This document shows, in pieces, positions 1 to 53,600 of a stretch of 64,000 nucleotides of DNA. The notes below the pieces were generated by a model, which saw only the letters and a program-made list of their open reading frames with translations, did no database searches and was not told the DNA's origin. The stretch is from positions 1 to 64,000 of the forward strand of contig NW_026934169.1 of the NCBI RefSeq assembly GCF_032062105.1. The letters run 5' to 3'. Position numbers and translations under genes: made by a program. Origin of the DNA: Saccostrea cucullata. Taxonomy: Eukaryota. Numbering within the stretch: position 1 is the stretch's first letter; each line of letters opens with the position of its first letter.

Positions 1-170
1 ATTGTACGCACAATGGAGATTTCTCAGGTTGCCTTACCGTTCGCTCTCGTAGAATGGTCAGTCAATCATGCATTTTACTCACTTCTGACACCATGTATCA
101 TTATCAGTTCCTGGGTATATGTCATTAAAGGTAGAACCACGTGTTGAGTACTAAATCTAATTTATTCCAG

Positions 171-385
171 AACGAGACAACTTGGTAACACAATAGGTCG
201 TACATAAGATTATTCGTATTTGATTAACTCGTACTTTTATACATATGTTACAAACCCTATGTTATTTACTGGATATTTACAATAAATTAAGATTTATAAT
301 GCACAATGTCGATGAATTTCTACTTGCTTTGATTTATCTAACCAATAAAAAATATTTTAAAGCAGTATTTAAATGTCTAGAGATA
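171..385 (+). other. Probable terminal exon plus 3'UTR of an upstream paralogue of the small secreted peptide gene (rest of gene mostly outside window)
   Basis: Acceptor tttattccag ends at 170. Phase-2 reading a-ACG-AGA... gives TRQLGNTIGRT* (stop 205-207) and starts like exon 5 at 14690 (t-ACG-AGA). 254-385 is near-identical to the 3'UTR at 14803-14931, including AATAAA (281-286). Confidence 0.5.
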
Positions 386-724
386 GCATCCACAAGTCAA
401 ATTTCATATTTAGTATTTACCGCTTGAGTTATATATCAAATCAAAGCTTATTAAAATCATTTAAGAAAAATATAATTTTGATATTTTCTGGTCAAGCATT
501 GTTACTAAAAATAGATTGCGAAACGTAACGGTATTGCCTTAGTGTGTGACCACTTTTCTGAAGAAAATATCTTGTATCATTGAGGTCAAAACGTAAGAAA
601 TAAATTCAAAATATATTCTCTCTCTTCTTTTTTCTTTTACCCAGAACCAGAATTATTTAAGTTCAATTGCATCAAACACATAGATTGACCTGAATCGTTA
701 GATAGTGAGAGTCTTCTTCCTGTG

Positions 725-1166
725 TACTGGTGTCTCATTATATCGCGGTACTTAATCCTTTTGCATAAAAAGTGTTATTCCAATTTTTTACTTTTAACTT
801 TCATCAAAAAATATTCATAAACCAATCTATGGACTAACTTTTTAGTGTAAAATTATTTCCCAAGCTTGCATCGTTTAAGTTATTGTCTATTTTTAAAACA
901 GGAAGTCTTATTTACCTCCAAAATTTGAGAGTCTAATTGTATCGCGGTATGGGAAAACATGGAAACTTGTAGATGACATGGACCTCAATTTTTATTTTTG
1001 ATTTTTTTTTTCAAACGAATGTTCCATACTTCTTAATCATCAAAAAAGTAAACATTCAGACAACATAAATATATTGTCTATCAATAAAAAGAAAAAAGGC
1101 TATGTATCCAAATCATTGCGGCATACCGCGATACAACGAAACCCGCGATATAATGAGAATCGAGTA
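725..1166. mobile_element. Non-autonomous Tc1/mariner-pogo-type MITE
   Basis: Terminal inverted repeats tactggtgtctcattatatcgcgg / ccgcgatataatgagaatcgagta (21/24) with TA ends. Second internal inverted pair at 937-951 / 1122-1136. No ORF. Confidence 0.7.
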
Positions 1167-1759
1167 TATAATTAATTGGGTCAAACGAGACACGCAACGT
1201 TACGTTGACGTTATGCTTATAAAAAGACGTCAACAAATCCAATCAATAAAAATTATCACAAATTAATTTTTAATTAAAGGAAAAATACTAAATTATTTTT
1301 ATTATTCTTCCATAGTATAGCAATTGAAAACCTACAAAAAAGCATCATTTACTAGATTATATATATCTCGTTAAATAGTGTCATGTTTTCGCTAACTCAA
1401 CAGAAGAAATACAGATTATACTTGACTGGTTACACCGCAAAAACCAAAATTTAAGTATTCAGGTAAGGAGGAAGAGATAGTTTTTCATGGACTTATAATC
1501 ATGAAATTTTAAAGTTTTTAAGTTTAAACTAGATAACGCAAAAGAAATAAGCTGAACAAAAGCTCAATCGATTTAAACTGTAATATGCAGAATTTGAATT
1601 CAACACAACTAAAACCCCTGTGTCAACTCTTTTAAATATATTGGCAGTTCTTTTGTTTGCAAGCTGATTTTTCTTGAATCTCTAGAAATTTAAAGACTGT
1701 TTTTATCTTTTTGTAAAATTAATCTTTGGGTTAGACACAACACATGCAATAACAGGATT

Positions 1760-1995
1760 CAGTGGCGGATTTAGAGGGGGGTACATCCACCCCCACCCCC
1801 TTAAAATTGTCAAAGTTAGTGTAAATCATAATTTCGACGAGAAAATGTAAAAATGTCTACTCGGTAGGCATCAAATTTACCTACAAAATCTCTAGAATCC
1901 TAGAGTTTCCGTTGGCTTCGCACCGAGGCGGCGCCCAGACCCTGCCTATATTTTTGCCACCCCCCTTTTAATTTTAAATCCTGGATCCGCGCATG
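1760..1995. mobile_element. MITE with CAGTGGCGGAT-type termini
   Basis: Imperfect TIRs cagtggcggatttag / ctggatccgcgcatg, G/C tracts inside both ends, identical 5-bp flanks GGATT (1755-1759, 1996-2000). Confidence 0.6.
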
Positions 1996-2559
1996 GGATT
2001 TATAGAGAGTTGGAGTGATATCCACTTATTATACAAAGGAAACTTAAAATCATGAAAGTTTTATGTAAATTAATTTAAAAAAATAATAATAACTGCATTT
2101 TAAATTCTTCAAACAAATACATTTGATATGATGCGGAGAATTGATCCAGAACGAGTATTGACTGGTAGCGTGATGTTAATCTTAAATTATTTATATCAGG
2201 TATCGGAGAGTTATATTCTGAATAAATTGATAATTATATGTAATTAAAAAATAATTCAAACAATTATATTTGAACTGGATATTTAAAAAAAAAACTTGCG
2301 GAATATTAATCATAAATATGACAGCAGCATGTAATAAATTCTGAAAGAGAAAAAGAAGGGGTAGGGATTTAATGTAAAATTAGTTTGAACGACATTTAGT
2401 TAAACATTTAGATATTTCCTAATGTGTGTTAAAGGTTGTCCAAATTGTTTGTGAATTATTGAAGCTCTTTATCCTTTTCTTTCCCTTTTTTCTCTCTCTA
2501 ATTTTTTTTCTCTCTCTCTCATTCTCTATCTCCCTCTCTTTATCTCGTTTAAAATATTT

Positions 2560-3372
2560 GATTTGTCCCGCTTTCGCGAAGGCGACGAGTCTTTTAATCT
2601 TATTCGTCTGTCCGTTTGTCAGTCAGACTGTAAATCTGTTCGTATGTCATTAAAATTTAACCTTGGTCATATTTTTTGAACTAGAACAGAGAAGAGAATT
2701 TTTATATTTGATTCATGTGTTATAACTGTGACAAGACCTTTCTAAATACACTATAATTTCTTTTTACCCCATGACCTTGATCTTGAAGTTTGACCTACTT
2801 TTCAAAAACTTGAACCTTGGTCATAACTTTTGAATGAGAAAAGATACATATATATATATATATATAGTCACAAGCCACGGTTCGGAGTTCGCTTACTATT
2901 ATGTGATAGGTAATAGATCGTACTGTCCTCTACAAAAATTTGAATTTTTCAATTGAAATTTGTATATGACAGAGGACAGTACATTTTAGTCGTGGTTTGT
3001 GACGATGGAAAAGATAGGGCTTTCACATTTCATATGTATATTACCATTTCTTACACTATGGATTTTGACCTTTGACCTTGAACCTTGGCATTTTACATAC
3101 TTTTCAAAAATGTTATTTTCCCCTTACAGCTTTTGATTGAGAAGAGATAAGGCTTTCTTATTCGACAAGTTCATTATGTGTCAAACCATCGCGGTTTGGC
3201 GCAGACCATCGGACTTTGGCGTGACCATCGGACTTTGGAGTCCCATCGCACTTTGAAGTCCTACATATATACCCGCTGGCCGATGCTCATAAGGAGCATC
3301 GCCTTTAAAACAAAAGAGTTACGTAATGGTCAAACTAACCGATCCTCGCGAGGAGCATCGGGTAATCTTTGT
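2560..3372 (+). mobile_element. Helentron/HINE-like non-autonomous element with a nested small MITE (about 2865-3005) in a TA run
   Basis: gtctgtccgt microsatellite near the start, repeated gaccttga / ataacttttgaa units, hairpin cgatgctc-ataag-gagcatcg near the end. Nested TIRs gtcacaagccacg / cgtggtttgtgac. Boundaries approximate. Confidence 0.5.
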
Positions 3373-4006
3373 AATAATAAATGTTTAAAGATTAATTTAT
3401 GTTTCATAACTCACAATAGATCATACGTCATACAATGTAAATGCTGAGTGAGCTTCTCAAACATTTAAACAGCGGCATAAGAACTGGTCATGATAATACG
3501 TTATTTCGATGTAATACTTTTCTTATGTATATATTGTTTTTCATCTATCAAGGAGGGTAAAAATTATAATCTAATGAAAAATCTGCATGTAGCAAAAAAA
3601 TTAATAAGTTTTAAAACAGCGAAGGGACGTAAACAAATCACTGATAAAAGAAGTTGAGTTAACAAGGCAGGGCGACTTTTTAAAAAGATCTTTATTAAAG
3701 AAAATAATGAAATGAATTACTTCAAATGTAAAATTATTTCTGAATGAATACAGTAGTTTCAATGTTATTGTTGACAAACCAATCGAAGAATCGTTCGTGT
3801 AACGTGCAAGATCGTGCGTGTATCAGACTCAATCGTTTGCAATCGTGTAAGACTGTTGAACGTGTAGAATCGTGTACGTGAAGGATAGTTCGTGTATCAG
3901 GTTTAATCGTGCGTTAATCATGCGCAACCGTTCATATAAAGTGGTCGTTCGTGTAAGTTGTGAACCATAATATATGTAATACAATTATTTTCTTACTTAT
4001 TCGGTG

Positions 4007-7000
4007 TACTAGATAAAGACAATGAACTCCCTGTGGATATGATAGTTCAATACTAGATAAAGACAATGAACTCCCTGTGGATATGATAGTTCAATACTAG
4101 ATAAAGACAATGAACTCCCTGTGGATTTGATGGTTCAATACTAGATAAAGACAATGAACTCCCTGTGGATATGATGGTTCAATACTAGATAAAGACAATG
4201 AACTCCCTGTGGATATGATAGTTCAATACTAGATAAAGACAATGAACACCCTGTGGATATGATAGTTCAATACTAGATAAAGACAATGAACACCCTGTGG
4301 ATATGATAGTTCAATACTAGATAAAGACAATGAACTCCCTGTGGATATGATAGTTCAATACTAGATAAAGACAATGAACTCCCTGTGGATATGATAGTTC
4401 AATACTAGATTAAGACAATGGACTCCCTGTGTATATGATAGTTCAATACTAGATAAAGACAATGGACTCCCTGTGGATATGATAGTTCAATACTAGATAA
4501 AGACAATGAACTCCCTGTTTATATGATAGTTCAATACTAGATAAAGACAATGAACTCCCTGTGGATATGATGGTTCAATACTAGATAAAGACAATGAACT
4601 CCCTGTGGATATGATGGTTCAATACTAGATAAAGACAATGAACTCCCTGTGGATATGATGGTTCAATACTAGATAAAGACAATGAACTCCCTGTGGATAT
4701 GATGGTTCAATACTAGATAAAGACAATGAACTCCCTGTGGATATGATGGTTCAATACTAGATAAAGACAATGAACTCCCTGTGGATATGATGGTTCAATA
4801 CTAGATAAAGACAATGAACTCCCTGTGGATATGATAGTTCAATACTAGATAAAGACAATGAACTCCCTGTGGATATGATAGTTCAATACTAGATAAAAAC
4901 AATGAACTCCCTGTGGATATGATAGTTCAATACTAGATAAAGACAATGAACTCCCTGTGGATATGATAGTTCAATACTAGATAAAGACAATGAACTCCCT
5001 GTGGATATGATAGTTCAATACTAGATAAAGACAATGAACTCCCTGTGGATATGATAGTTCAATACTAGATTAAGACAATGAACTCCCTGTGTATATGATA
5101 GTTCAATACTAGATAAAGACAATGAACTCCCTGTGGATATGATAATTCAATACTAGATAAAGACAATGAACTCCCTGTGGATATGATAGTTCAATACTAG
5201 ATAAAGACAATGAACTCCCTGTGTATATGATAGTTCAATATTAGATAAAGACAATGAACTCCCTGTGTATATGATAGTTCAATACTAGATAAAGACAATG
5301 AACTCCCTGTGGATATGATAGTTCAATACTAGATAAAGACAATGAACTCCCTGTGGATATGATAGTTCAATACTAGATAAAGACAATGAACTCCCTGTGG
5401 ATATGATAGTTCAATACTAGATAAAGACAATGAACTCCCTGTGGATATGATAGTTCAATACTAGATTAAGACAATGAACTCCCTGTGTATATGATAGTTC
5501 AATACTAGATAAAGACAATGAACTCCCTGTGGATATGATAATTCAATACTAGATAAAGACAATGAACTCCCTGTGGATATGATAGTTCAATACTAGATAA
5601 AGACAATGAACTCCCTGTGTATATGATAGTTCAATATTAGATAAAGACAATGAACTCCCTGTGTATATGATAGTTCAATACTAGATAAAGACAATGAACT
5701 CCCTGTGGATATGATAGTTCAATACTAGATAAAGACAGTGAACTCCCTGTGGATATGATAGTTCAATACTAGATAAAGACAATGAACTCCCTGTGGATAT
5801 GATAGTTCAATACTAGATAAAGACAATGAACTCCCTGTGGATATGATAGTTCAATACTAGATAAAGACAACGAACTCCCTGTGGATATGATAGTTCAATA
5901 CTAGATAAAGACAATGAACTCCCTGTGGATATGATAGTTCAATACTAGATAAAGACAACGAACTCCCTGTGGATATGATAGTTCAATACTAGATAAAGAC
6001 AATGAACTCCCTGTGGATATGATAGTTCAATACTAGATAAAGACAATGAACTCCCTGTGGATATGATAGTTCAATACTAGATAAAGACAATGAACTCCCT
6101 GTGGATATGATGGTTCAATACTAGATAAAGACAATGAACTCCCTGTGGATATGATGGTTCAATACTAGATAAAGACAATGAACTCCCTGTGGATATGATG
6201 GTTCAATACTAGATAAAGACAATGAACTCCCTGTGGATATGATGGTTCAATACTAGATAAAGACAATGAACTCCCTGTGGATATGATAGTTCAATACTAG
6301 ATAAAGACAATGGACTCCCTGTGGATATGATAGTTCAATACTAGATAAAGACAACGAACTCCCTGTGGATATGATGGTTCAATACTAGATAAAGACAACG
6401 AACTCCCTGTGGATATGATGGTTCAATACTAGATAAAGACAATGAACTCCCTGTGGATATGATAGTTCAATACTAGATAAAGACAATGAACTCCCTGTGG
6501 ATATGATAGTTCAATACTAGATAAAGACAATGAACTCCCTGTGGATATGATGGTTCAATACTAGATAAAGACAATGAACTCCCTGTGGATATGATGGTTC
6601 AATACTAGATAAAGACAATGAACTCCCTGTGGATATGATGGTTCAATACTAGATAAAGACAATGAACTCCCTGTGGATATGATGGTTCAATACTAGATAA
6701 AGACAATGAACTCCCTGTGGATATGATAATTCAATACTAGATAAAGACAATGGACTCCCTGTGGATATGATAGTTCAATACTAGATAAAGACAATGGACT
6801 CCCTGTGGATATGATAGTTCAATACTAGATAAAGACAATGAACTCCCTGTGGATATGATAGTTCAATACTAGATAAAGACAATGAACTCCCTGTGGATAT
6901 GATGGTTCAATACTAGATAAAGACAATGAACTCCCTGTGGATATGATAGTTCAATACTAGATAAAGACAATGGACTCCCTGTGGATATGATAGTTCAATA

Positions 7001-7394
7001 CTAGATAAAGACAATGAACTCCCTGTGGATATGATAGTTCAATACTAGATAAAGACAATGAACTCCCTGTGGATATGATAGTTCAATACTAGATAAAGAC
7101 AATGGACTCCCTGTGGATATGATAGTTCAATACTAGATAAAGACAATGAACTCCCTGTGGATATGATAGTTCAATACTAGATAAAGACAATGAACTCCCT
7201 GTGGATATGATAGTTCAATACTAGATAAAGACAATGAACTCCCTGTGGATATGATAGTTCAATACTAGATAAAGACAATGAACTCCCTGTGGATATGATA
7301 GTTCAATACTAGATAAAGACAATGAACTCCCTGTGGATATGATAGTTCAATACTAGATAAAGACAATGAACTCCCTGTGGATATGATAGTTCAA
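4007..7394. repeat. Tandem satellite, 77 copies of a 44-bp unit (tactagataaagacaatgaactccctgtggatatgatagttcaa)
   Basis: Unit recurs at 4007, 4051, and so on; 3388 bp / 44 = 77. Only point variants, no spacers. Confidence 0.97.
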
Positions 7395-7546
7395 TTGTGT
7401 ATGCTTACTTCCCTATGACACCTGGTTCCTTTTTCTTGTTTAAGAAGAGTGTCTTTGATAGTAGTTCTTTTCCTTTGTATTTCACGTGGATTACAAAATG
7501 GACACATTTTCCATCTGTTGTAATGTAATGAAGACTAATTTGTCGT

Positions 7547-8120
7547 GAAATGCTATTTTTGTAATGTGTTTTTAATCTACACGAAACAGATGTTTCGTAT
7601 TTGGAAAAGTTAAACCACTTAGTTACGATGCCCACTGTCGTTTACAAAAATTTTACATCATTTATTCTTTTAACAAACTCTCATTCTCAGAAATTTTCCA
7701 AATACACATAAAATGAAATGGTACTTTTTCCTTTTTTCGATAAACAGGGAAGAAATGCTATTTTTGAAATGTGTTTGTAATCTTCACGAAACAGATGTTT
7801 CGTATTTGGAAAGATAAAACCACTTAGTGACGATGTCCACTGTTTTTACAAACATTATACATCATTTATTCTTTTAACAAACTTCCATTCTCAGAAATTT
7901 CTAAATATAATGTATAATGAAATGGTACTTTTTCCTTTTTTCGATGAACAGGGCAGAAATGCTATTTTTGAAATGTGTTTTTAATCTACACGAAACAGAT
8001 GTTCCGTATTTGGAAAGAGTAAACCATTTAGTGATCCATGTCCACTTTTTTTACAAACATTATGCATCATTTATTCTTTCAACAAACTTCCCAGAAATTT
8101 TCAAAATGGTCCTTTTTTCT
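7547..8120. repeat. Three diverged ~205-bp tandem repeats immediately upstream of the peptide gene's first coding exon
   Basis: gaaatgctattttt...cacgaaacagatgt...ggaaa...aaacca recurs at 7547, 7752 and 7956. Confidence 0.85.
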
Positions 8121-8143
8121 TTTTTTTTATGTATAGGACCGGG

Positions 8144-8153
8144 TATATATATA
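8144..8153 (+). promoter_or_regulatory. Candidate TATA box of the small peptide gene
   Basis: TATATATATA about 45 nt upstream of the ATG at 8195. Alternatively this lies inside an exon starting at the acceptor ending 8136. Confidence 0.35.
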
Positions 8154-8194
8154 CAGCAATTCTAAGCGAGCTATTCTCAAATCCAAGGGACAAG

Positions 8195-11100
8195 ATGAGG
8201 AACCTCTACATTTGTTTAACCGTAAGTAACCTGCATGGCTTCTTTTCTTTTTACCGACATCTTTATGTTTTGTTATGCAAAAAATATATACACTTTAAAG
8301 CAATGCTGAAATAGAGTATGTGCGTTTTAAAAGTGATTATATGAGTTTTTAGTATTCGTCTTACAAAACGTAAATAAAAATATGTTTTTTTATTATTATA
8401 CTGATATTTTCTGTTCATAACTGCATGATTTAATGGATAAGAAATAATTATTTGTTGTTTCGGAGGGTTTTTCACCTAATTATTACAATCCATTCAACTT
8501 TTTTGATGACAAAGCAATAGAGTAAAACGTGCGTGATCATTCATATAAGATGAGAGATCGTACGTGTAGCAGGTTTAATCGTTCGCAGTTTTAATCCTGT
8601 GCGTGCTCATTTCATTTTTAAAAGATTTTTCGGAAATTTAATCTTTTAAACAATTTTTTTTTGTTTATTGTTCTACATGTAAAAGGAAGGAAATGTCATT
8701 CATAAAGTTAAATATTGAATTGATGATCGCATTAAAACACGTAAAATCGGGTCGCGAAGCAGGTCAAAATTTAGTAAGTTACAGACAATTCACTAAATAA
8801 TGTCTGTAGTTATATTCTCAGTAAAATGGAGCAAAAACAACAAACAACCTAGAAATTCAAATTAAGAATTGTTACATCAATATGTGTACAAAATTATGGT
8901 TTTATATTTTGCTTTGTTGAAAGGAAATCAACTTGAGAAGATTAGTAGTACTTTTTGAAAATGACAAAAACGATAACGTTTTAGAACGTCACGTAGAAGC
9001 AGATACCGAAGCAATTTTGTGTTTTTCTCAGGAAAATCCTGAATAAACTCTAAAAATGTTGAAGGAATCAAGAAAATATGTCACAAGCGAGTTGTGTCTG
9101 TGTGTACAAATAGTACAGACAATATTTAAGTGTAACTGTATCGGATGAGGATTGTATCATTTATATGTTTTGAATTGACCCCTTTGTGTATTACGTCATC
9201 AATTATGTGAAGGAACACAGAATTAAAAGCATGGAACCGACGCCATTCTTATGTTGTATCTACAGGCTAGTAAAAGCTTTATGGGACCACCTGAACCTTA
9301 ACACAAGGATGACCTGTGAAGAAACGGTTTTACTGTAAACATCTAAACAAAACTTTAAAATTTGAAACGTAAATGAAAGACAAAGGCGCTTCAGAGTTGC
9401 TTATCCTGTGAAAGCAGAGTTAAGTGCTAAAAGAAATTAAAACCTTAACAACGAAAATTATACAATGAGATTAATTCTAAAAAAAAATTGTCAAGTATAA
9501 GAAAAAGAATTTAATGAATGTGTATTGGAATATTCTGTGTGAAATGTATAGGTATAGTATCTATTATAAATTTTCGATGCTATGTTTTGACGTTACATTG
9601 CCGTTTTGTGTGCTCCGCGGGTACAGAACATGTTGATTTGAAAATGAAGTAAATTTATTTGTGTTAATTCGAATAGAATGAAACTTCACACACCAACAAA
9701 ACAAATATTTTTACATATTATAATGTGCTTGTTTTGAATTTCCAGTGAGAAGTATAACGAAGATGGACATCGTCCACGAACTTTTCGAACAACTCTCGTA
9801 TTAAATCAAAAATAAGTAAATGAATTCATTATTTCGATTATTTTTTCAAACGTATGTAAACAACGGTGTTTCTTTTCACGTAGTCTCTTGTCTTTGAACG
9901 TTTTTCTTGCAGGATTAAAACAGGTACCCTATGTTGAACCTGAATGAAACAGTCTAAATATAAATCAAATTACATAGTTTTCATTGACTCCAATAAGAAC
10001 TTTTTGTTATTGTTAAGCGCCACCTTAAAACAATCTTATACAAGCTTTGAACAGAACAATTCCTAAAAGGTTAATCTCATAGAAATGCAGAATCTAAATA
10101 TTCATACAATATAAATAATTCAATGTTTATTGAAAATCTTTTGAATTGAATTGAACATATTTTATTGACAATTAAAGCCAAAAGGATAAGACACAAGTTC
10201 TGACAACTTAGATAGTCTTCTCCTCATACAAAATTTTTATAATATTGCCAAAATAAAGAACAATTATTTTCAGTAACAATTAGTAATGTCAAAGACAGTA
10301 AACTCTTGATACCAGAACACAATACTATATATACAAAAAATAAAGATTTTTCAGAGAATCGACCACACTCTTTTAAAAAGGTATGAATAACTTTAAAAAT
10401 TTCTACATTTTGTTGATCAGAGAATGAATCAACACCCCATAACATCAAATGTACATCTATAATGTACAAATTGTTGAATGATAATAACTTATTCATTAGA
10501 GAATATCTTGCTGTTGCATATTTTCTACAAACAAAAAAACAAATGATAGGAATCCTCTATTTGTCCACATGAGCAATTCGGACTGTCAATTAAATTACAG
10601 CGAAATAGGTCAAAATTTAAAATACAATTATGTCTTAACCTTGTGTGAATAATATTCCAAAATCTCTTACCAAAAGAAAAAATAATTTGGAGGTTTTACA
10701 ATATTGCTTGGCAAGCATTTTAAAACATTTTCATAGGAGTTGCCTCCCTTATGTAAATTTTAGTTGCATTCAACTTTCTAATAGTATCTGGAATAAAGGA
10801 TTTATTGAAAAGTTCTAATCTGCATTTTGTCAAGGAATAATTGGAGGAATTTCTAGTAGAGTATTGTGAAATGTTGCCTCTAATATCAGGTACTATATTT
10901 TGAATATAAGTAGGTACTAAATTATTGTGTATTTAGTACATTGTTACTAGATTTGTTCGATTTCTTCTATTTTCCAATGGTTCCCATCCAGTTTCCAGAT
11001 AAAGTGAATTTTTAGAAGCAATAAATGTAAGACCTGTTACAATTCTAGCAGCAAATAGTTGAACTTTCTCAAGCTTTTCTATGTCTGCCTTTGTACACCC

Positions 11101-14100
11101 CGACCAAACTTCAACTGCATATTCCAGTTGTGGTCTGATAAAAGAAATATACATCTGGGACAAAATATCCCTTGAAACATTAAATTTTAGTTTTTTCAGT
11201 AAACCAAGTTTTTTGTAAGCCTTCTTTACAATGATATCAATATGATCAGACCATCCCATATTTGAAGACAGAAGTATCCCAAGATGTGTATGTTGTGTGA
11301 CATATTCTATTTGACAGTTATCAAAAATTAGATTTGGAAATTGCTGCACAGCTTTCAAATGAAAAAATACAGCTTTTGTTTTCTGTGGGTTGAATTTCAA
11401 CAGCCATTTTTCGACCATTCATGTAATACTTTAAGATCTTGATTAAGATTTTGTTCAATATGATTAATATTATCTGAACATTGTTGTAAAGAATTATCAC
11501 CAGCATATAATCTACAGACAGATATCATATTTTGAGCAACATCATTTACATACATCAAAAATAAGAGTGGTCCAAGTACAGATCCCTGAGAGACTCCAGC
11601 TTTTACATAACCAATGGAAGAGAGCAGATTTCTGTACTTGACTTGTGTTCTATTGCTTAAATAATTTTCCAACCATTTTAGCATTTTACCATTAATTCCG
11701 AAGTTTGAAGTTTATGAATGAAGCTTTTATGCCATACTCTATCAAATGCTTTGGATAAATCACAGAACACCATACAGCAGAATTTACCTTCATCAATACT
11801 TTTCACAACAGAATGGTACATTTCTAGAAGTTGATACACAGTAGAGTGCCTGGGTAAAAAACCTGACTGATATTTATAAAAAAGATTTTTTTAATGTAGG
11901 TAATTGTACACATGTTTGAAAATAATTCTTTCAAATATTTTACTTACACAACTCAACAAAGAGACAGGTCTTTAATTTGAAGTTATAGAGGGGTCATCCT
12001 TCTTAAATAGTGGAAGAACATATACTAATTTCCAACATTCAGGAAATGTTTTTAGCATTAATGATTTATTAAATAAAATACACAGTGGTTTTGATATAGT
12101 ATTTTTACAAGACTTTAACATTTTGTGACTGATGCCGTCTGGACCCACAGCTTTATTGATAGGAATTACTGAGATTATGTCTGTAATCTCATATTCTTGA
12201 ATTTGTATTTCTGGAAATCTATCATGACATCTAATTTCTATATTTGGAAGTCCATGGTCACTGTCGTCTAAAAAAGTGATAGATGTAAAATACTTATTTA
12301 AGAGTTCAATCTTGTCGGAGTCTAGTATTGCAAATTTATCTGTGTTAGTTTCATTTATATACTGAATTGGTGGTATTTTACTCGTCGATTTAGTGTGAAA
12401 AAAGTCTTTCAATAATTTCCAGTATAATTTTTGATTATTCTTATTAGCATCTTTTAGATGAGAACCAATGTTATCGTAATAATTAGTTATGGCACGTCTT
12501 TTTCATGTTATTAACCTTATTTCGTAGTTTACGATAATTGTTGCGATCAGATTCTGTTTTAGTTTTTTGAGCTTTTTTTCCTAAGTCTATTCCGATCACG
12601 AATAGTTTTCTTTAAAAGAGAATCCATCCATGGTTTATCGTTTGGTCTTATGGTTATTGTTTTTTTCGGGTATGCATTGGTGAATTATAGAATTAAACTC
12701 CTCTGTCAAGTTTCTTTAGCAGAATCCATGTTTTCTGTGTCATCAATAATGCTATTCCAATCACTTTGTAATATGAGTGTATTTAGGAGTTCTATATCTG
12801 CATGCTTGACATCCCATACTTTGCGTTTGTATTCCATATTAAGGCCGTTGATCTGATGAATATACATGTTAGTAACCCTATGAACATTAAGTGTATGAGC
12901 ACCATTTAAGGTGCCAGAATCATGTACATGTATAGTTTCACTGATAATTATAGGATCTATGAGAGTGCCTGTGTTACAAGTGATTCTTGTTGGTTCAAGT
13001 ATAATGTTTGTTAATCTGCCGCTTTTCAAAATTGTATTTACTTCATGTGATGTATTTAGTTTTAAGAAATCAACATTAGGGTCACCAAGTATTACAATAG
13101 TATTCGAAATATCACTGGCTTTTTCAATAGAACAAGAGAACTTTTGCCAAAATGTACTACTACTATGTGGTGGGCGATAAATACAGCATATAAGAAGGTT
13201 TCCCTTTGATTGGGGTATTTCTATCCATAATATTTCTGTATCAATTGGTTCTAAATCTATTCTACGACTTGCCTTAATAAAATTCGAGACAAAAATCATT
13301 ACACCTCCACCATGGAAGTTTCTATCTTTTCTAAAAATACTCCTAAAACTTTGTATAAATAAGCTTTCATCTGTTATACTTGGGTCCAAGTGATTTTCAC
13401 TAAAACACAATAATTATATCAAAATCATGTACTAAGTACATGAGGGAATCAATCTTATTTCCTATACTTCTGATATTGAGATGTAAAACATCAAGAGAAT
13501 TTTCAACATTTGGACCTGGATTTGTTTCAATATCACCTGAGCGTAAAAGTATGAAAAACAGAAATAACTGTGCAAAAAAATGAATGTTGAGGGACCAAAA
13601 TGCCAGAGACCTGCATTGTTGCTTTAAAACACCAAATACAAACAGTAAATTTTTAAAAAGATTTGCAGTTTTAAAGATTCTTATAGCTGACCTTTTAGTT
13701 TTCATTAATGTTTCTTTTTTTCTTTTCTAGGTTCTTTTGATCCTGCATCTAGCGCAAGCAAGACGTGATGTAATGGATCGATTCTCCACTAGGTAAATAT
13801 GAAAAATCTTTTTATATATTGTGATGTTTGCATTATTTTTTTTTTTCACTTTTAGCAAAAGAAAGGTAAAGGAATATAGAAATTAAAATTTCTTTTGTGT
13901 CATGAATATGACTTAAATTGGATAATATATAAAATACTTTTTCTGTAAGTGCAAGAGAGTCTATAATATCAAAAGAAGACAGATGCATAATATTGTAAAT
14001 ATTTTTTAAATGTATATATATTGGGGGAGGGGTGATTGATGAATATCAGATTTTCAACTTTTTTTTCTTTTATGTATTGTATGTATTATTAACATACAAA

Positions 14101-14732
14101 AAAATATTAGTTCAAAATGGAGAAAATCCATGTTTTTTTAATAATACGTTTTTTGAATATTTTTTTTCTTTCAGTGAGAGAGATCCCGAGAAGTCAAAAC
14201 AAGATGGAGGGTTAATGATGTAAATATTTTTTCTCATTCTTTTTTATTTGTTTGTATTTAATGTTGAAAAAGAATGGTAAAATTCAAAATAAAAATAATC
14301 AATGTTTTTGTGTTTAAAAAAAATCATTCAATGCGATTGGTCCTGAGAGGCCAAAACTAATTAAATGGGTGATGAAGTAAATAATGTTATTATTATTATA
14401 TTATTAGTTTAATTTTGTTATTGAAAAGGGATTGGAAAATTTCGAAATGGAGATAATTATTTTTTTTTTGTCTACTATTTTTTTCCCTTTCAGTGCGAGG
14501 GATTCCGAGAGACCAAAACAAGATAGAGGGGTCATGATGTGAATATCTTTTGTTGTTGTTGTTGAAAATAGTAATGGAATTGCAAATATTACAATTTTTA
14601 ATTTGCCGTTTGTATGCCTTTTATCAAAAAACATTTTAAAATTAAATTTTCTATGTTATGATGTGCTATTAATTTTGTTTTCGTTTCAGTACGAGAATCG
14701 CACGGGCGCCCCCGGACTATCCGTGGGGTTAA
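8195..14732 (+). CDS. Small secreted prepropeptide, 73 aa, predicted C-terminal amidated peptide APPDYPW-NH2
   Basis: Coding exons 8195-8221, 13731-13792, 14175-14219, 14494-14538, 14690-14732, all GT-AG with matching phases (0,2,2,2), total 222 nt. Translation: MRNLYICLTVLLILHLAQARRDVMDRFSTSERDPEKSKQDGGLMIARDSERPKQDRGVMITRIARAPPDYPWG*. Signal-peptide-like first 19 aa ending A-Q-A. AATAAA at 14830-14835. Confidence 0.75.
10141..13705 (-). mobile_element. Decayed, 5'-truncated CR1/L2-group LINE (APE endonuclease + reverse transcriptase, ORF2 only)
   Basis: Frameshifted ORF pieces: LHLNIRSI, CFSENHL, GGGVMIFV, CIYRPP, ILGDPN, TLIDPI (APE); KAVGPDGI, GVSQGSVLGPLLFLMYVND, LYAGD (RT; YADD degenerated), WLLKFNPQKTK, HLGILL. 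3' end AATAAA + (TTCAA)n tail at 10141-10166. Lies in intron 1 of the peptide gene. Confidence 0.95.
13511..13537 (-). other. 2A-like ribosome-skipping motif GDIETNPGP preceding the LINE endonuclease
   Basis: ORF 13400-13705 reads LLRSGDIETNPGP, matching the G-D-(V/I)-E-x-N-P-G-P consensus. Confidence 0.85.
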
Positions 14733-15255
14733 ATGTAGCTGAAGGTAGTCAACATGCCGGGCCCTTGGGGTACAGATCCATATTATGAAAAGATGATGAC
14801 TGACCCTATGCTATTTACTGGATATTTACAATAAAGATTTATAATGCACAATGTCGATGAATTTCTACTTGCTTTGATTTATCTAACCAATAGAAAAATA
14901 TTTTAAAGCAGTATTTAAATGTCTAGAGATACATGTACAGGGCAATTCCATATGAGGGAATTATTAACAATATGATTTTACGATTAAAAAAAGCCACGTT
15001 TTACAAAGTTCGGCACTTAATATCAAAACTTATTACGTGTGTAACGTGCCATTTCATTGAATATAAAAATTATTTATAAAGTGGTTTCTATTGAGGTGGT
15101 GTAAGCAAGAGTAATTCCCACGACCGCTATATATTGTACGTCGAAATTCACAGATCATTTCATTATTCATCCAAGTTCAATTTGTTAAACTGGTTACTGA
15201 GGTAAAGATACCACCACTTTTCTTGTGAATACTGGTTTGTTAAAGCCTCTATTAA

Positions 15256-15765
15256 GGTATCCGATCCATATTAGCCCCAGATTCAATGGAATTGAATGCA
15301 TAATAGATATGTATGGGCTTAATACTCAGTGAAGTTAGAACTAATTTTTATTTTTTTAGTATAAAAATGTAAGAGTGGGACATGTCCTAATTTTTTACCT
15401 TTTCCTGCCCTTGACGAATTATCTCCCTTTGATTTTATTCAATAAAAATTAATTAAAAAAAAAATGTTCGATAAAAAAAATTATTTCTAATTGTTTTTCT
15501 ATTCCCAATGATCAAATACATCTTTCCACCACAGCATTTTTTGATATTTAAAGTATTTAATTTTTTTATCTTAAAAAACTTACTTCTTTCCATATACTTC
15601 AATGCAATTTTCAATAATTAATTTCTGCTTAGGTGATAAAATTTTTAAAAATTTCTCTTGGTAAATCCCTTTCTACTCTAAAATGCTTTAAAATAATATC
15701 AGGATATTTTACAAAAAATTGATATTTAAGGTTAGAAATTTTGGTCCTTATATGGGTCGGATACC
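15256..15765. mobile_element. TTAA-targeting MITE (Kolobok-like termini)
   Basis: TTAA|ggtatccgatccatat ... atatgggtcggatacc|TTAA. TIR 15/16, begins with two purines. Confidence 0.8.
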
Positions 15766-16046
15766 TTAAAGCTGAACACGACTCGTAAATAGGCGTACGC
15801 CATTTTCGATATCATTATCTACGATACATCGACACGAGGGTATTTTCTACCGATTCATTACACCTGACTGCTTTATTGTCACGGATATCGGCGTTGAATA
15901 GCAACCCGTGTTTGAGCTGGTTATCCTGCATTAATTTCGTTTACATGTTATTCCAGTTACGTGTTTCTGTGTTTGTATACTGCACTGTCCTGTAAAATTA
16001 TAATATATACACATAATTGTAAGTTTCTTTGGTATCTTACTTTCCT

Positions 16047-17500
16047 GCATTAGGTGAAATATTACATTATTATTGTCGTTACCGAGTACTGCATGTATAG
16101 CATACGTCCGTTCACACCGGTATCGACTGATTACAATTGGAATTATTGAAGTTATTACATACGAGTTTATTGTTCCGTGTCATCCCCTTGGTACCTTGAA
16201 TGGGACGAAAAGTAGATATTTGTGCTACTCCCTTTAATTACGAGAAACCGGATGCCAATGTCTCGATAAAATTCAACATTTAATTAATCCCATCGGAGTC
16301 TGGTCGGAGACATTTCTCGCCATTGACGAAACGTTTTGTCGTACTGAATGGCTGCTGGCGCAGTAGACGGCCAGCAAGTTTTTGAACAATAGACGCGTAT
16401 TACATGAATTTTGTGGATTCATTTGTACTCGTGCTTCGTTGTGATTTAGATTGATTTTATATTGTTTAATGCCGAGTCGTCAATATTTCAGCCATATTTC
16501 GGCAGATAAAATTTTGGCCCCAAGTGAGCCTACTCTTTTTTTCGACCTCCACAGAAACATTTTTTACATGCCAAGGGGTTTGTTACATGTATCCTTGACA
16601 CGGGGTACCATTTAATGTCCCATCCGACGGACTAAACTCGACGGAAATACGATGCTGCCTTCCTATAAGTTGACAATCCTATCCTATCCTATCGTGAACC
16701 CTGCGTCCACAATCCTATCCTGTGATTTCAGTATAATCCTATCCTGCAACTCTCAGTTTTTAGCTCACCTGAGCATTAGGTGAAATATTACATTATTATT
16801 GTCGTTACCGAGTATTGCATGTATAGCATACGTCCGTTCACACCGGTATCGACTGATTACAATTGGAATTATTGAAGTTATAACATACGAGTTTATTGTT
16901 CCGTGTCATCCCCTTGGTACCTTGAATGGGACGAAAAGTAGATATTTGTGCTACTCCCTTTAATTCCGAGAAACCGGATGCCAATGTCTCGATAAAATTC
17001 AACATATAATTAATCCCATCGGAGTCTGGTCGGAGACATTTCTCGCCACTGACGAAACGTTTTGTCGTACTGAATGGCTGCTGGCGCATTAGACGGTCAG
17101 CAAGTTTTTGAACAATAGACGCGTATTACATGAATTTTGTGGATTCATTTGTACTCGTGCTTCGTTGTGATTTAGATTGATTTTATATTGTTTAATGCCG
17201 AGTCGTCAATATTTCAGCCATATTTCGGCAGATAAAATTTTGGCCCCAAGTGAGCCTACTCTTTTTTTCGACCTCCACAGAAACATTTTTTACATGCCAG
17301 GGGGGTTGTTACATGTATCCTTGACACGGGGTACCATTTAATGTCCCATCCGACGGACTAAACTCGACGGAAATACAGTGCTGCCTTTCTATAAGTTGAC
17401 AATCCTATCCTATCCTATCGTGAACCCTGCGTCCACAATCCTATCCTGTGATTTCAGTATAATCCTATCCTGCAACTCTCAGTTTTTAGCTCACCTGAGC
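16047..17500. repeat. Recent 726-bp tandem duplication
   Basis: 16047-16772 and 16773-17500 differ by only scattered substitutions; GC microhomology at the junction. Confidence 0.92.
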
Positions 17501-18040
17501 CGAAGGCTCAAGCGAGCTTTTCTTGTCACATCTTGTCAGGCGTCTGTCTAGCTGTCCGTCTCACTGTAAACTTCTCACATTTTCGACTTCTCAAGAACCG
17601 CTAGACCAATATCAACCAAACCTGCCACAAAGTATCCTTTGCTAAAGGGGATTCAAGTTTGTTAAATACAACGGCATCGCCCTCTTTCGAGGGGAGATAA
17701 TTAATAATTAGTGAAAAAAATAATGGCATCTTTTAAATTTCTTCTCAAGAGCGTTTGGGCCAGGAAAAATGAAACTAATGTGGTAACATCCTCAGGTAGT
17801 GTTAACATGCATTTTGTTCATATCATGACCACCGGGGATAGGGCGCGGCCATCATTGACCATACCATCGAAGTTTTACATAGGAATATATAGGAAAAAAT
17901 CTTGAACTTCTTCGAAAATAGCAAAGCCATGATTAGTAATATTTATATAAAGGTAACCTCAGGTAGAGTAGATTTAGGATTGTCTAAGTCATGACCCTCG
18001 GGGGAACGGTGAGGACACAATGAGCGGTCCAAGTTTCTAA
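17483..18040 (+). mobile_element. Oyster-type Helentron-associated element (HINE/CvA-like), truncated
   Basis: Start tttttagctcacctgagccgaaggctcaagcgagctttt (subterminal hairpin), gtctgtc-type microsatellite, then repeated ctcaggtag...catgacc units. End approximate. Confidence 0.75.
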
Positions 18041-18078
18041 CATAAGTGTACATAAATAATTAATATTAGTAATTAACA

Positions 18079-19420
18079 AGGAGGATGGGGAAATGGAACA
18101 GACAACGGTGGATTGGATGAAAATGAATTTGGTCAAAGTGAACATGGTATGTAACAGGGTATTATATTTTTTTATTTAAATATAAGTAAGAAATAACGTT
18201 TAATAAAAAATGAAAGTCATCTTAACCACTGTTATTCGATATAATACAATTTTTTACAACAAAAAGGTTTATAAAAGTCTGAACTGCCAAAGTTATATTA
18301 TAATTGTATAACATAGGTTAACATAAGGCTTGATTCCTTATAATTTAATTTCAGTGTAGAAAATAAGACAATTTTTTCCTCCAAAAAATGACTTCAAATT
18401 GAGCATATTTCAAAAGTAACGTTAAGCGGAATACTGTATACAATATTATTTTCCCCCCATGTTATTTTCGCCCTCTCACACTTGCGTTAAATTCGCCCAG
18501 TCATAGTTTTATTTAAGAAATTATAGTGTATTCTTTGAATTCGCCCGCTTTAAATTCGCCCAAATGAGAATAGGGTGAAAAAAAAAACGGGGGCGAAAAT
18601 TTCCTTGTATACAGTAATGAGTTTTAACGTAACTCATAGTGATGTTAGGGAACTTATGGTATACCATGTAAGATTAATTTTGTATCCAATCAAATGACAT
18701 CTTACATGTACAACAAAAATTTTACTATATATATCTTTTTAAAAATCATTTTGACAGATTCAGGGATGATTGATGAACACTTGGCATCAGTATATAGGTA
18801 AGCATCAAGTGGTACTGAGTCTAGGTTTTCTCTAAAGTTTTCACATTCAATTATTTTAATCACTATTGAATTTATCACAGTGCAGGACAATTTGTGGTTG
18901 TCACTGTATGCAGTGACACAACAGTTGTGCCAGAGCGTTATGTAGCAGAGGTAATTGTTCATGGACATTATAAAACTAACATATAAGCTCGTGTTTTGTT
19001 TACCAAGTTCTTTTCTTCCAGCACTTCTATTTTAGTTCTGAGATATCAATTTTAGCATAAGTTTTTTCATTAGTTTTTCTTGTCATCTCAGCCTTCTGAT
19101 TCTCACACACTGATTGATTGAATTAAACAGTCCATATTTAGAGATCAAAACTTTATTTAACATTGTACAGTTTTCTAATCACATTGGATGTTTTTTTTCT
19201 TTATACACTGTGCATCCCTCAACCTTTTTCTAAGAGTTTTGAAAAGATGCAGATACCCGGTAACTTTTTTTTTTACATTAAAGAAGTCTAGGAAGAAGAA
19301 CTTCTTCTCAATTTTGTGATCAAAGACAAAACATTTTGACTTTACTTTTGGCCAACCAGAAAGGATGAAGGCTAGGAGCCTTTCCGCTCGGTTACAAAAG
19401 TGCTAGGACCCCCGATTGTC
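18079..19420 (+). pseudogene. Spliced, decayed fragment resembling a DNA-transposase C-terminal domain
   Basis: Phase-compatible exons (about 18079-18146, 18758-18797, 18881-18950) give ...AGQFVVVTVCSDTTVVPERYVAE. 19277-19420 then reads IKEV*EEELLLNFVIKDKTF*LYFWPTRKDEG*EPFRSVTKVLGPP, with three stops and a lost AG acceptor. Family assignment is from recollection of the motif only. Confidence 0.45.
18432..18616. mobile_element. Short TA-flanked MITE
   Basis: TIRs tactgtatacaa / ttgtatacagta; internal ttcgccc / gggcgaa motifs. Confidence 0.7.
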
Positions 19421-50627: not shown

Positions 50628-53600
50628 CTAATAACTGCTTTCTTGATTCCTGTAATTTTGTTGACCCGAGTGTCGCCGACCTCTTGGAATGTAAAACTTT
50701 TGGAATTTTTCTCCGTCGTCAAAGTGCCTTCTCCATCTAGGGACATTCAAGTCTCTTGTTGAGTCATCATCATTGAAGTGACGTTTAGTAGGCCTGTTGG
50801 TAAATGATGAAGTAAATTTTGTCCAAGATATAAAAAAAATAATATTTTTAAATTTCTTTTTTTTATTGTATTATTCTCGGTTATTCAAAATTTGTTTGAA
50901 TAAAAAAATGAATGTTTAGAAGTTTATTTTCTTCATGTGATTAAAGGTTTGATGTTGAACTGGAAAATTACTCACGATCGACACCACCAGACAAGAACGG
51001 CAACAAGTAAAGTCACAAGAACAACTGAAGAAGCTGCAGAAACAGTGATAATGAAAGCAAGACTGGTAAATGGATCCTTGCTTGTTGGCGTCAACGTGGT
51101 TGAAATACAATCTAAAAAAACAATATTCAAAATTATTTTTCTAACATTTCTGCAATTATTCTTAATTATTTAATAAAAACCTTATCTTTGAAGTTTGAAC
51201 AGCTCTATGTTTTTATTTATTAAAACATGTTCAAATAGAAATATTTTTATTGGTAAATTTTATTAATCTAAAGTTTATCAAAGTAAATGAAAAATAAAAA
51301 CTATTTTCAATATTTAAATGAAACCAGACCATGTAGTCAAAAAAGGAAACACTGAAAGCAACTTATACTTTCTCTCATATTACATTCACACTACATTGAT
51401 TGGTAGAATCGAAATAGAATTTGCAAAAAGGTAGCAGATGATGCAAAAGACGAAAGTCTGACTTTTTAAAATTCTGAATAGTTAATTTTGCTATCAAAAT
51501 TAATATGCAACAAGGTTAATAAAATTCTACATCGTTCACCGAAGGACGAGTTAAATCTAAAGCAACTCTTGTGATCACCAATAGTATTCTCACTATTTTT
51601 ATTGTACAAAAATCAATATTGTTATAAAAAGATACTTCGAAATGAAATATAATGTAAGGTCCACATCGTGTCAGTTTAAGGTTGCTCTGATGCAGTAGAT
51701 AGAGAAAACAGAAAAAAACATATAGTTCTTTGGAAATATCAAATTTAGTAATTATCAAAAATAATTTTACCTTTATTCAATGACCAATCGAACTTTTGAC
51801 TTGAAGGATTGCAAACCTCACAGCTATTTCCTGGTTTGAAAGCTCCATGTCTTACGCACGTATTGTCAATAAAACAATACTCTGCCTATTTGTAAGGTAA
51901 GAAATAATCTATTCCTGTTAATATTGCATGTAATGCAGATTCATAGGTTTTAATGAATTATACATGTTACATTTCTCATAACATTATAAATCGACGAGTT
52001 TTAACTCAAGTGTATGCAACATTGTATCATATTTATTTATATAAAGAATACCTTAAGGTTGAACTGTTCAGCACCGTTGACATTAGAAATCTGCTGGCAT
52101 TTTGACTGATATTTGTATATCGAGTAAGACGGGGAGAATTGATTTCTATCGTAGGAGATTTTGAATGTAAACTTGGTAATCCAAGTCACCCTACTGTCCT
52201 CAGGCAAAGGGCACGCTCCTTGAAATAACGTTCGGTCATCTAGAGGTTCTTCAATGTCAGTGATATGCATGATTGTGTTGTTATGATGCACCTATATTAG
52301 AAATGGTAAAATGTAATGTTGTTGAAGATCTAAGAAAAGGTTGTATTTACGCAACCAAACACAAAACAAAATATTATTTGTACATGTAGTAAAAACAATG
52401 AACTATAACATGTTGCTTCTACCTACCAACTCTCTTGTAATAAAGCACGTTTTCTTAATATCCTCAAGGAAGTATCTGCCCTCTAGGAGAACTTCGGAAC
52501 AGGTCCGTGAAGATAAATCGCAAGTTCTATTTGGTGCAGTGTTAAGAATTGAGGGGGGTGCTCTGACATTGAAAGAGCAGTCATTTCCTCCAAACCCAGA
52601 ATCACACGTGCAGTTACCTGTTGGGTGTAAGTTTTTAATTATTTTAAATTTATCCCGGTCGATACAAACTAACAAAAATATTAATATACTTTCAGTTTGT
52701 ATACTGTGATGAATACTAAAAGGTAAATATTCACATCCAAGCCTAGAGGTTTGTGGGAATGATAAATGATCAACCTTATATACATGTATTTTTCTTAAAC
52801 TGTCGGTAATAAAATCTAATTTCGAACTCTTTTCAATTTTGTATGTGATAAACACTAATAAATGATCATCAGGATACTTATAAATGAACTCTGTACACTC
52901 CAAATTTAATGGGAACAAGAAAAAAAAATGTTTCAATATATTCTTTCATTTATTCATTTTGGGGTCAGCAGGGTTCTCCACGAGGGGTTTTACAATGGCG
53001 GCCCACCATGGTTAAATTAATGTGCGCCATGGTTAAACGAGCTGCGCCATGGTTAAAATCGACAGCCGCCATGATTAAATTTTTCTGCATTTCAGTCCTG
53101 ACACCTGCTTTTTTAATGACTTGAGTAGTTGATTATTGTGTTTATACTACGACTGCCATGCACCTCCCATGCCTCAAAGGAAAGCGGACTGTGCTAAACA
53201 AACACGTCGTTAATTAGCGAGTATGCTGTGAAGCGTGACAATCAATGGAGTGTCAATCAGCTGATCAGATGATAAATATCTTGAGAGTTTAATATCCTGT
53301 ACACATGTAAATAATTTGGGTAAACTTCAACATGTTCACTAAATTATTAGATATATAACGGGTTTATAAAAGATGACAATTACGAGGATGATAATCGTCA
53401 TGCATGCGAGTAAGGTTTCTGTGCCACAAAACCTAGGCCTACTCTATAAAATTTTATATTTCTCTGTATTTAATCAATTTCCCATGCTCTGTTTTTTTAA
53501 GCTTTAACTTTATTATCTATCTGATAAAATGTGCATAGGGTCTACATCTCAATCGCAGTCTTAGTCTTGGTTTTAGAGTTACTTCCCGTTGTTGTGAAAC

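Follow-up and report, generated by a model that had tools for sequence, protein, structure and literature searches.

A retrotransposon-bordered 3'UTR in Saccostrea cucullata as the probable remnant of a diversifying family of genes for predicted secreted short peptides

The segment at positions 254–385 (+) of the window, the 64,000-nt stretch of Saccostrea cucullata DNA that we analyzed, is probably the tail of one copy of a gene family encoding short, predicted secreted prepropeptides, and what had been taken for its last coding exon is a chance resemblance within the LTR of an adjoining retrotransposon. Together with the view that the family forms a diversifying library of short peptides, we give this reading a probability of about 0.8. 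The LTR identity and the exon layout, splicing, and divergence pattern of the family are direct observations.

We searched the 1.17-Gb assembly, in which the window is the start of one contig (C16306), and found that the 3'UTR is not a dispersed repeat lying away from such genes: a family last exon precedes all 22 of its other genomic matches. The general proposal of the preliminary description, a family with a conserved UTR and a divergent peptide, stands: the genes that carry this UTR also have conserved signal exons, and their last coding exon is hypervariable. Its proposal of a tandem array holds in part, as four copies lie in tandem on one contig (C15770) and the family as a whole is only partly tandem. 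Collapsing near-identical copies gives about 15 distinct types, the remnant counted as one and the others numbering about 14, and further genes with diverged UTRs occur on C2307, C18634/C12363, C17299, C9394/C2444, and other contigs. Gene models were built on approximately 25 contigs; these counts are lower bounds, the raw numbers being inflated by haplotigs.

The genes share a layout of a 27-nt first coding exon, a second exon of 50–83 nt, one to seven symmetric phase-2 exons of 42–48 nt, of which many are dead, and finally the last exon; a phase-0 intron follows the ninth codon. The last exon carries a basic cleavage site (RIAR, RKAR, KIKR, or KRR) and a cysteine-free peptide of 4–16 residues, none of the 14 last-exon peptides tabulated containing a cysteine. 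Some of the peptides are predicted to be amidated, with frames ending in Gly such as APPDYPWG, LAPNVFWG, and ILSGSRFRFG, and the predicted products range from cationic and aromatic (FSGTHFRFGW, TRNGYYKFGW) to neutral or acidic (APPDYPWG). These short peptides would be cheap to make and to test. In three FGW-type genes, the end of exon 1 and its splice donor are repeated in tandem units of about 29 bp, up to 14 times (L048, C15770:6394–6692; L050, C15770:31030–31172; L087, C8286:158109–158521). Two other loci (L106 and L107, on C18634 and C12363) contain 45-nt spacer exons reading GPKGDRG, with collagen-like triplets. A collagen origin of the 45-nt exon is not supported and is a lead only: Gly occupies the five expected positions in just 32, 5, 2, 1, and 0 of 44 exons, and all 19 matches that a GPKGDRG-type exon gave in the genome were family members.

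One intact member lies within the window at 8195–14931 (+), with five coding exons and a 73-residue product. Exon 1 (8195–8221), of nine codons, reads AG-ATG...GT, encodes the first half of a predicted signal peptide, and is conserved across the family contigs; exon 2 (13731–13792), with 11 genomic matches, encodes the remainder and the start of the spacer. Two 45-nt symmetric (phase 2-2) spacer exons follow at 14175–14219 and 14494–14538. The last coding exon (14690–14732) reads RIAR and then APPDYPWG before the stop, from which motifs would predict the product APPDYPW-amide, and the 3'UTR (14733–14931) has its conserved core at 14803–14931. A degenerate copy of the 45-nt exon with an AAG acceptor lies at 13950–13994 and is skipped in the RNA joint seen, and in a dead copy at 14332–14376, the acceptor AG is replaced by AA. 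The signal peptide is predicted from hydropathy, the product having a hydrophobic stretch at residues 4–16 (peak 3.4) followed by A-Q-A.

GT-AG joints in RNA cover three of the four junctions: exons 2–3 (joining exon 2 to 14175; run X1), exons 3–4 (14219–14494; two contigs in X1 and four reads in X17), and exons 4–5 (14538–14690; X1, X4, and X17). None of these three was seen in run X16, and an exon 1–2 joint was not among the RNA joints listed. As RNA was accepted at 90% likeness, the joints may derive from close paralogues. Loose ends of the RNA in all four runs also match exon 2 of a second subgroup joined to a spacer exon. One X1 contig (depth about 40) has joints 8223–14175 and 14530–14738, with 30 other letters standing where exon 4 would end and the last coding exon would follow; this variant would change the C-terminus and matches no gene among the loci fetched.

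The intact gene itself probably varies between haplotypes. On a contig whose sides match the window at 96–99%, approximately 4.6 kb of unrelated sequence (C14923:40770–45385, approximate) replaces window positions 13611–18162, so that this haplotype keeps exon 1 without exons 2–5 and the UTR; presence/absence variation of exons 2–5 is therefore likely. Elsewhere in the window, 77 copies of a 44-bp unit (98% match) lie just upstream of the gene at 4007–7395, and intron 1 contains broken frames at 10224–13413 (−) resembling the endonuclease and reverse transcriptase of what is presumably a LINE. At 52326–60515 (−) lie exons of a gene of the von Willebrand D/EGF type that includes a long stretch rich in Thr.

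Based on these motifs and general knowledge of convertases, we propose that the signal peptide would be cut after A-Q-A and that a convertase of the furin or dibasic type would excise the spacer of one to seven modules at one of the four basic sites listed above. This would release the 4–16-residue cysteine-free peptide, with amidation of those products whose frame has a terminal Gly. Tandem duplication combined with diversifying selection on the released peptide would then create a peptide library, its members possibly aimed at a microbe, a parasite, or another partner outside the oyster. Duplication, fast change confined to the released peptide, dead copies, and loss from a haplotype match the effector families of bivalves, and host defense against such a partner appears the likeliest role, which we place slightly below an even chance. 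In being neutral to acidic, the PW-type peptides differ from antimicrobial peptides that lyse membranes.

The family could alternatively consist of signaling peptides directed at receptors, whether as paracrine or pheromonal signals or as cues for settlement, whose diversification would serve recognition, a role we consider possible but distinctly less probable than defense; other roles share the remainder. Neuropeptides keep the mature peptide constant and vary the spacer, the reverse of the pattern in this family. On the other hand, the peptides are short, often end in Trp or Phe, and are in part predicted to be amidated, and two peptides, among the last exons of L010/L011 and L013/L017, resemble oyster neuropeptide ends: one ends in RFRFG, comparable to GXLL/FRFamide, and one contains MNSLF, comparable to GMNPNMNSLFFamide, as far as the readable portions of PMC4200219 describe those peptides. 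Such likeness to the oyster LFRFamide and FFamide may be due to chance: it extends over four to five residues, concerns single members, and was chosen after the fact, and none of five family motifs occurs in the readable supplements of oyster neuropeptide papers, two scanned files of PMC4200219 excepted. We regard as rather improbable a further reading, in which an undescribed oyster library of at least 20 loci, with tandem 45-nt modules and a positively selected last exon, uses its short, Trp- or Phe-ended and partly amidated peptides to imitate neuropeptide ends on the receptors of parasites, predators, foulers, or larvae. If true, a neuropeptide-imitating library would mean that a filter feeder is engaged in an arms race of the conotoxin kind, in which haplotypes differ in the genes they carry.

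The probable remnant near the start of the window retains little of this layout. Its 132 bp at 254–385 match 14803–14931 at 95% (E = 1.9e-52), in agreement with the near identity first noticed, and include AATAAA at 281 and 344; on either side of the segment, the alignment fades within a few letters. A tree of 21 UTR cores, from which L007 and L016 were excluded as partial, clusters the segment with the four PW-type copies (support 99/97) and so places it in the PW subgroup, as the likely 3'UTR remnant of a paralogue. It retains a 4-nt stretch absent from the neighboring gene and is therefore not a simple copy of that gene.

To its left lies the end of a retrotransposon on the minus strand. 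Positions 1–253 have 21 genomic matches, themselves included, among them full-length copies on C16046 (93%) and C4395 (90%). In these two copies, the 159-bp LTR (TGT...ACA), here at 94–252 (−), is paired at a spacing of about 4.7 kb with identities of 158/160 and 158/159. Target duplications of 5 bp border the element on C16046, as they do two solo copies, and none is seen at the element on C4395. The C4395 copy has a 1414-aa ORF whose Pfam domains come in the order RT, RNase H, integrase, and since this order is found there, the element fits Ty3/Gypsy. Positions 1–93 (−) are then its internal 5' region, and a stretch directly behind the LTR, TGGTGTCAGAAGT, is what we take to be the primer-binding site. 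Given the orientation of the element, the window begins inside it.

To the right, in place of the family 3' flank, the segment adjoins a high-copy repeat element (384–3181, 497 first-look candidates in the genome), of which 384–726 and 1167–3181 match all three long copies. The intervening 727–1166 is a nested, MITE-like insertion with short inverted ends, missing from all nine other copies of its host element. As none of those nine copies carries the UTR, we rejected capture of the UTR by this element.

We conclude that 254–385 is probably what remains of the 3' end of a paralogue interrupted by a retrotransposon. The Ty3/Gypsy element would have inserted about 70 nt past the stop codon of this copy, and the coding exons would lie beyond the contig edge or have been lost. 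Insertion into a gene is inferred only, because a genome search gave no match for the other junction of the retroelement and the coding exons of this copy were not found in the assembly, the contig starting inside the retroelement. A search with the proximal UTR found only four copies, all intact. A contig considered as the missing 5' half (C15417) aligned best to the C15770 gene (95%), with no retroelement match found, and was discarded. One may instead suppose that the segment was never part of a whole gene at this place and is an orphan fragment copied beside two transposons by repair-templated insertion or transduction. The unrelated repeats on both flanks, the failure to find the upstream half, and the fact that the family 3' flank does not resume within 1–8000 are compatible with such an origin. 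We nevertheless find it unlikely, as the segment shares its strand with the intact gene, whose UTR is 14.5 kb away, a distance that falls in the 11–22 kb range separating the four C15770 copies; the 4-nt stretch speaks against simple copying from the neighbor, as does the lack of UTR in the other copies of the right-hand element against transfer with it.

The comparison of last-exon with UTR divergence that the preliminary description had proposed showed the last exon to be hypervariable. Among 12 distinct genes, a set that excludes haplotig duplicates as well as L012 (long frame) and L023 (early stop), mean divergence was 0.39 for the first 36 coding nucleotides of the last exon, 0.14 for the UTR core, and 0.21 for the last intron, so the last exon diverges approximately 2.7 times faster than the UTR. 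The exon exceeded the UTR in 66/66 pairs and the intron in 65/66, although the pairs share ancestry and are not fully independent, the alignments are ungapped, and the assembly contains error-prone haplotigs. Within the four genes of the FGW subgroup, the last exon showed pN 0.44 against pS 0.13, the latter near the flank divergence of about 0.10, and the spacer exon showed pN 0.15 against pS 0.09; the RKxR subgroup showed no clear excess (pN 0.40 against pS 0.35). Across four disjoint pairs, the amino acid changed in 27 codons and a single codon was silent-only (null mean 5.0, P = 0.03); none of 20,000 draws made at flank rates reached the 43 nucleotide differences of these pairs. Taken singly, two of the four pairs were significant (P = 4e-4, 3e-6, 0.065, and 0.089), with a pooled Fisher P of 0.002–0.009 depending on rounding.

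These sequence comparisons support diversifying selection on the last exon in at least one subgroup. The RKxR values leave some room for a last exon that is merely a decayed spacer exon drifting neutrally, in which case the family product, if any, would be the spacer. The last exon does open in the manner of a spacer exon, with a donor-like site retained after 39 nt in some copies; stop positions vary among last exons, with an early stop in at least one copy (L023). Drift, however, cannot carry a region beyond the divergence of its adjoining intron and UTR when its silent sites have diverged no more than those flanks, and in two of the four disjoint pairs, the differences concentrate behind the basic site. 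Spacer exons are themselves often dead, and we judge this explanation quite unlikely.

Preceding the remnant, the preliminary description had read an acceptor and a phase-2 exon opening with ACG-AGA, as in the intact gene. Part of this is correct: AG at 169–170 is followed by the phase-2 reading TRQLGNTIGRT and a stop at 171–207 (+), and YAG-N-ACGAGA occurs on both strands of the window only at 168 and 14687, so the resemblance seen exists. The sequence is that of the LTR, however. A near-identical short reading is present in 9/9 other LTR copies inspected (TRQHG in eight, TRQYG in one), these being 9 of the 20 other genomic matches, and none of the nine has the UTR behind it. The conserved last intron of the family and the roughly 70-nt stretch of UTR after the stop, present for the other 22 UTR matches, are absent around 171–207, and the pyrimidine tract of the acceptor is the weakest of 15 compared (9/15 letters against 10–15). 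A proposed upstream exon at 28–56 fares no better, as, with the element on the minus strand, it is internal retroelement sequence adjoining the putative primer-binding site.

RNA contigs matching from 254 extend upstream as normal family UTR in three of four runs, and no contig bridging LTR and UTR across 252–254 was among those listed for four runs from four studies; because this concerns contigs only, those listed, and other individuals, it means that presence was not shown, and it is not proof of absence. By these comparisons, 171–207 is a chance acceptor and short frame within the LTR and not a family exon, and the paralogous peptide pyroGlu-LGNTI-amide suggested from it is an artefact, as the reading is LTR sequence common to unrelated retrotransposon copies. 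That the LTR nevertheless provides a used alternative last exon yielding this peptide is largely refuted and, despite the correct acceptor phase and a motif shared in the window with the true exon alone, extremely improbable, given the ordinary LTR reading, the weak tract, the lack of a bridging contig among those listed, the approximately 4.7 kb by which a full element would separate 171–207 from any upstream exon, and its position behind the upstream gene's own last exon and stop. The case removes a false peptide and demonstrates that an LTR can mimic a last exon.

The family is real and expressed, and our searches of databases and papers did not find it. A profile of exon 2 (11 rows) run against proteins gave 57 candidates and no hit at E ≤ 10, and Pfam returned no family for this exon. 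An alignment of spacer exons gave no hit among 1.84 billion representatives, a weak negative since the 74 profile positions come mostly from an intron-derived first row. As these protein searches used single exons, a match of the spliced precursor to a database entry is possible. None of six family motifs occurred in the papers searched, a set that leaves most subscription journals outside its coverage. The searches of protein collections and papers probably missed the family because its exons span only 9–27 codons. It offers evidence of diversifying selection together with one haplotype lacking most of a gene.

Compared with known systems, the retroelement is ordinary: like Ty3/Gypsy elements in general, it has TG...CA LTRs, a presumed primer-binding site, 5-bp target duplications, and the RT–RNase H–integrase order, and there is nothing unusual about it, its 159-bp LTR being short. 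For the peptide genes, a similar layout is known from conotoxins, whose precursors carry the signal, the pro-region, and the hypervariable C-terminal peptide on separate exons and have conserved UTRs. The oyster family has the same division and conserved UTRs, a likeness of layout; conotoxins are venom products and mostly disulfide-rich. Molluscan neuropeptides such as APGWamide, LFRFamide, and FFamide have a mature peptide conserved across copies and species, and in the oyster family, the mature region is the most variable. The micro-exon genes, a class described in the accessible part of PMC8293314 as restricted to schistosomes, similarly have secreted products, exon duplication, and short symmetric exons that can be dropped without a frameshift. 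Those exons are mostly at most 36 bp long, whereas the oyster exons are symmetric with 42–48 nt and the variation resides chiefly in the last exon.

Among bivalve effectors, cysteine-free peptides are few, according to the portion of PMC12294457 available. The Cg-Prp genes of Crassostrea gigas, as far as PMC2823732 could be consulted, form a multigene oyster family with a signal, a pro-domain, and a C-terminal mature peptide, as does the present one; they have two exons (103 and 177–183 bp) or are intronless, the peptide is cationic and Pro/Arg-rich, and the signal is the most variable part, and neither that exon structure nor that domain is seen in our family, whose window gene has five coding exons. 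Myticalins, in the accessible parts of PMC5577615 and PMC12294457, share multigene organization, cysteine-free linear peptides, a conserved signal, a variable mature region, pseudogenes, and deleted exons. Their order of signal, mature peptide, KR, and anionic C-terminal extension, encoded by three exons with a phase-1 intron, differs from the oyster family, which lacks the central peptide, KR, anionic extension, and phase-1 intron, places the mature peptide at the C-terminus, and has another signal consensus. The MgCRP-I genes, described as confined to Mytilus in the portion of PMC4558851 available, encode six invariant cysteines and have a phase-1 intron in the signal region and a single pro exon; their hypervariable mature peptide is under positive selection, and its function is left unresolved there. 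The oyster family differs in its cysteine-free peptides of 4–16 residues, the phase-0 intron after nine codons, and the one to seven tandem spacer exons, and it has no six-cysteine array. Both nevertheless combine a conserved pre-pro region with a hypervariable mature peptide, and in both, a phase-2 intron is followed by a last exon that holds the end of the pro-region, the basic site, the peptide, and the 3'UTR.
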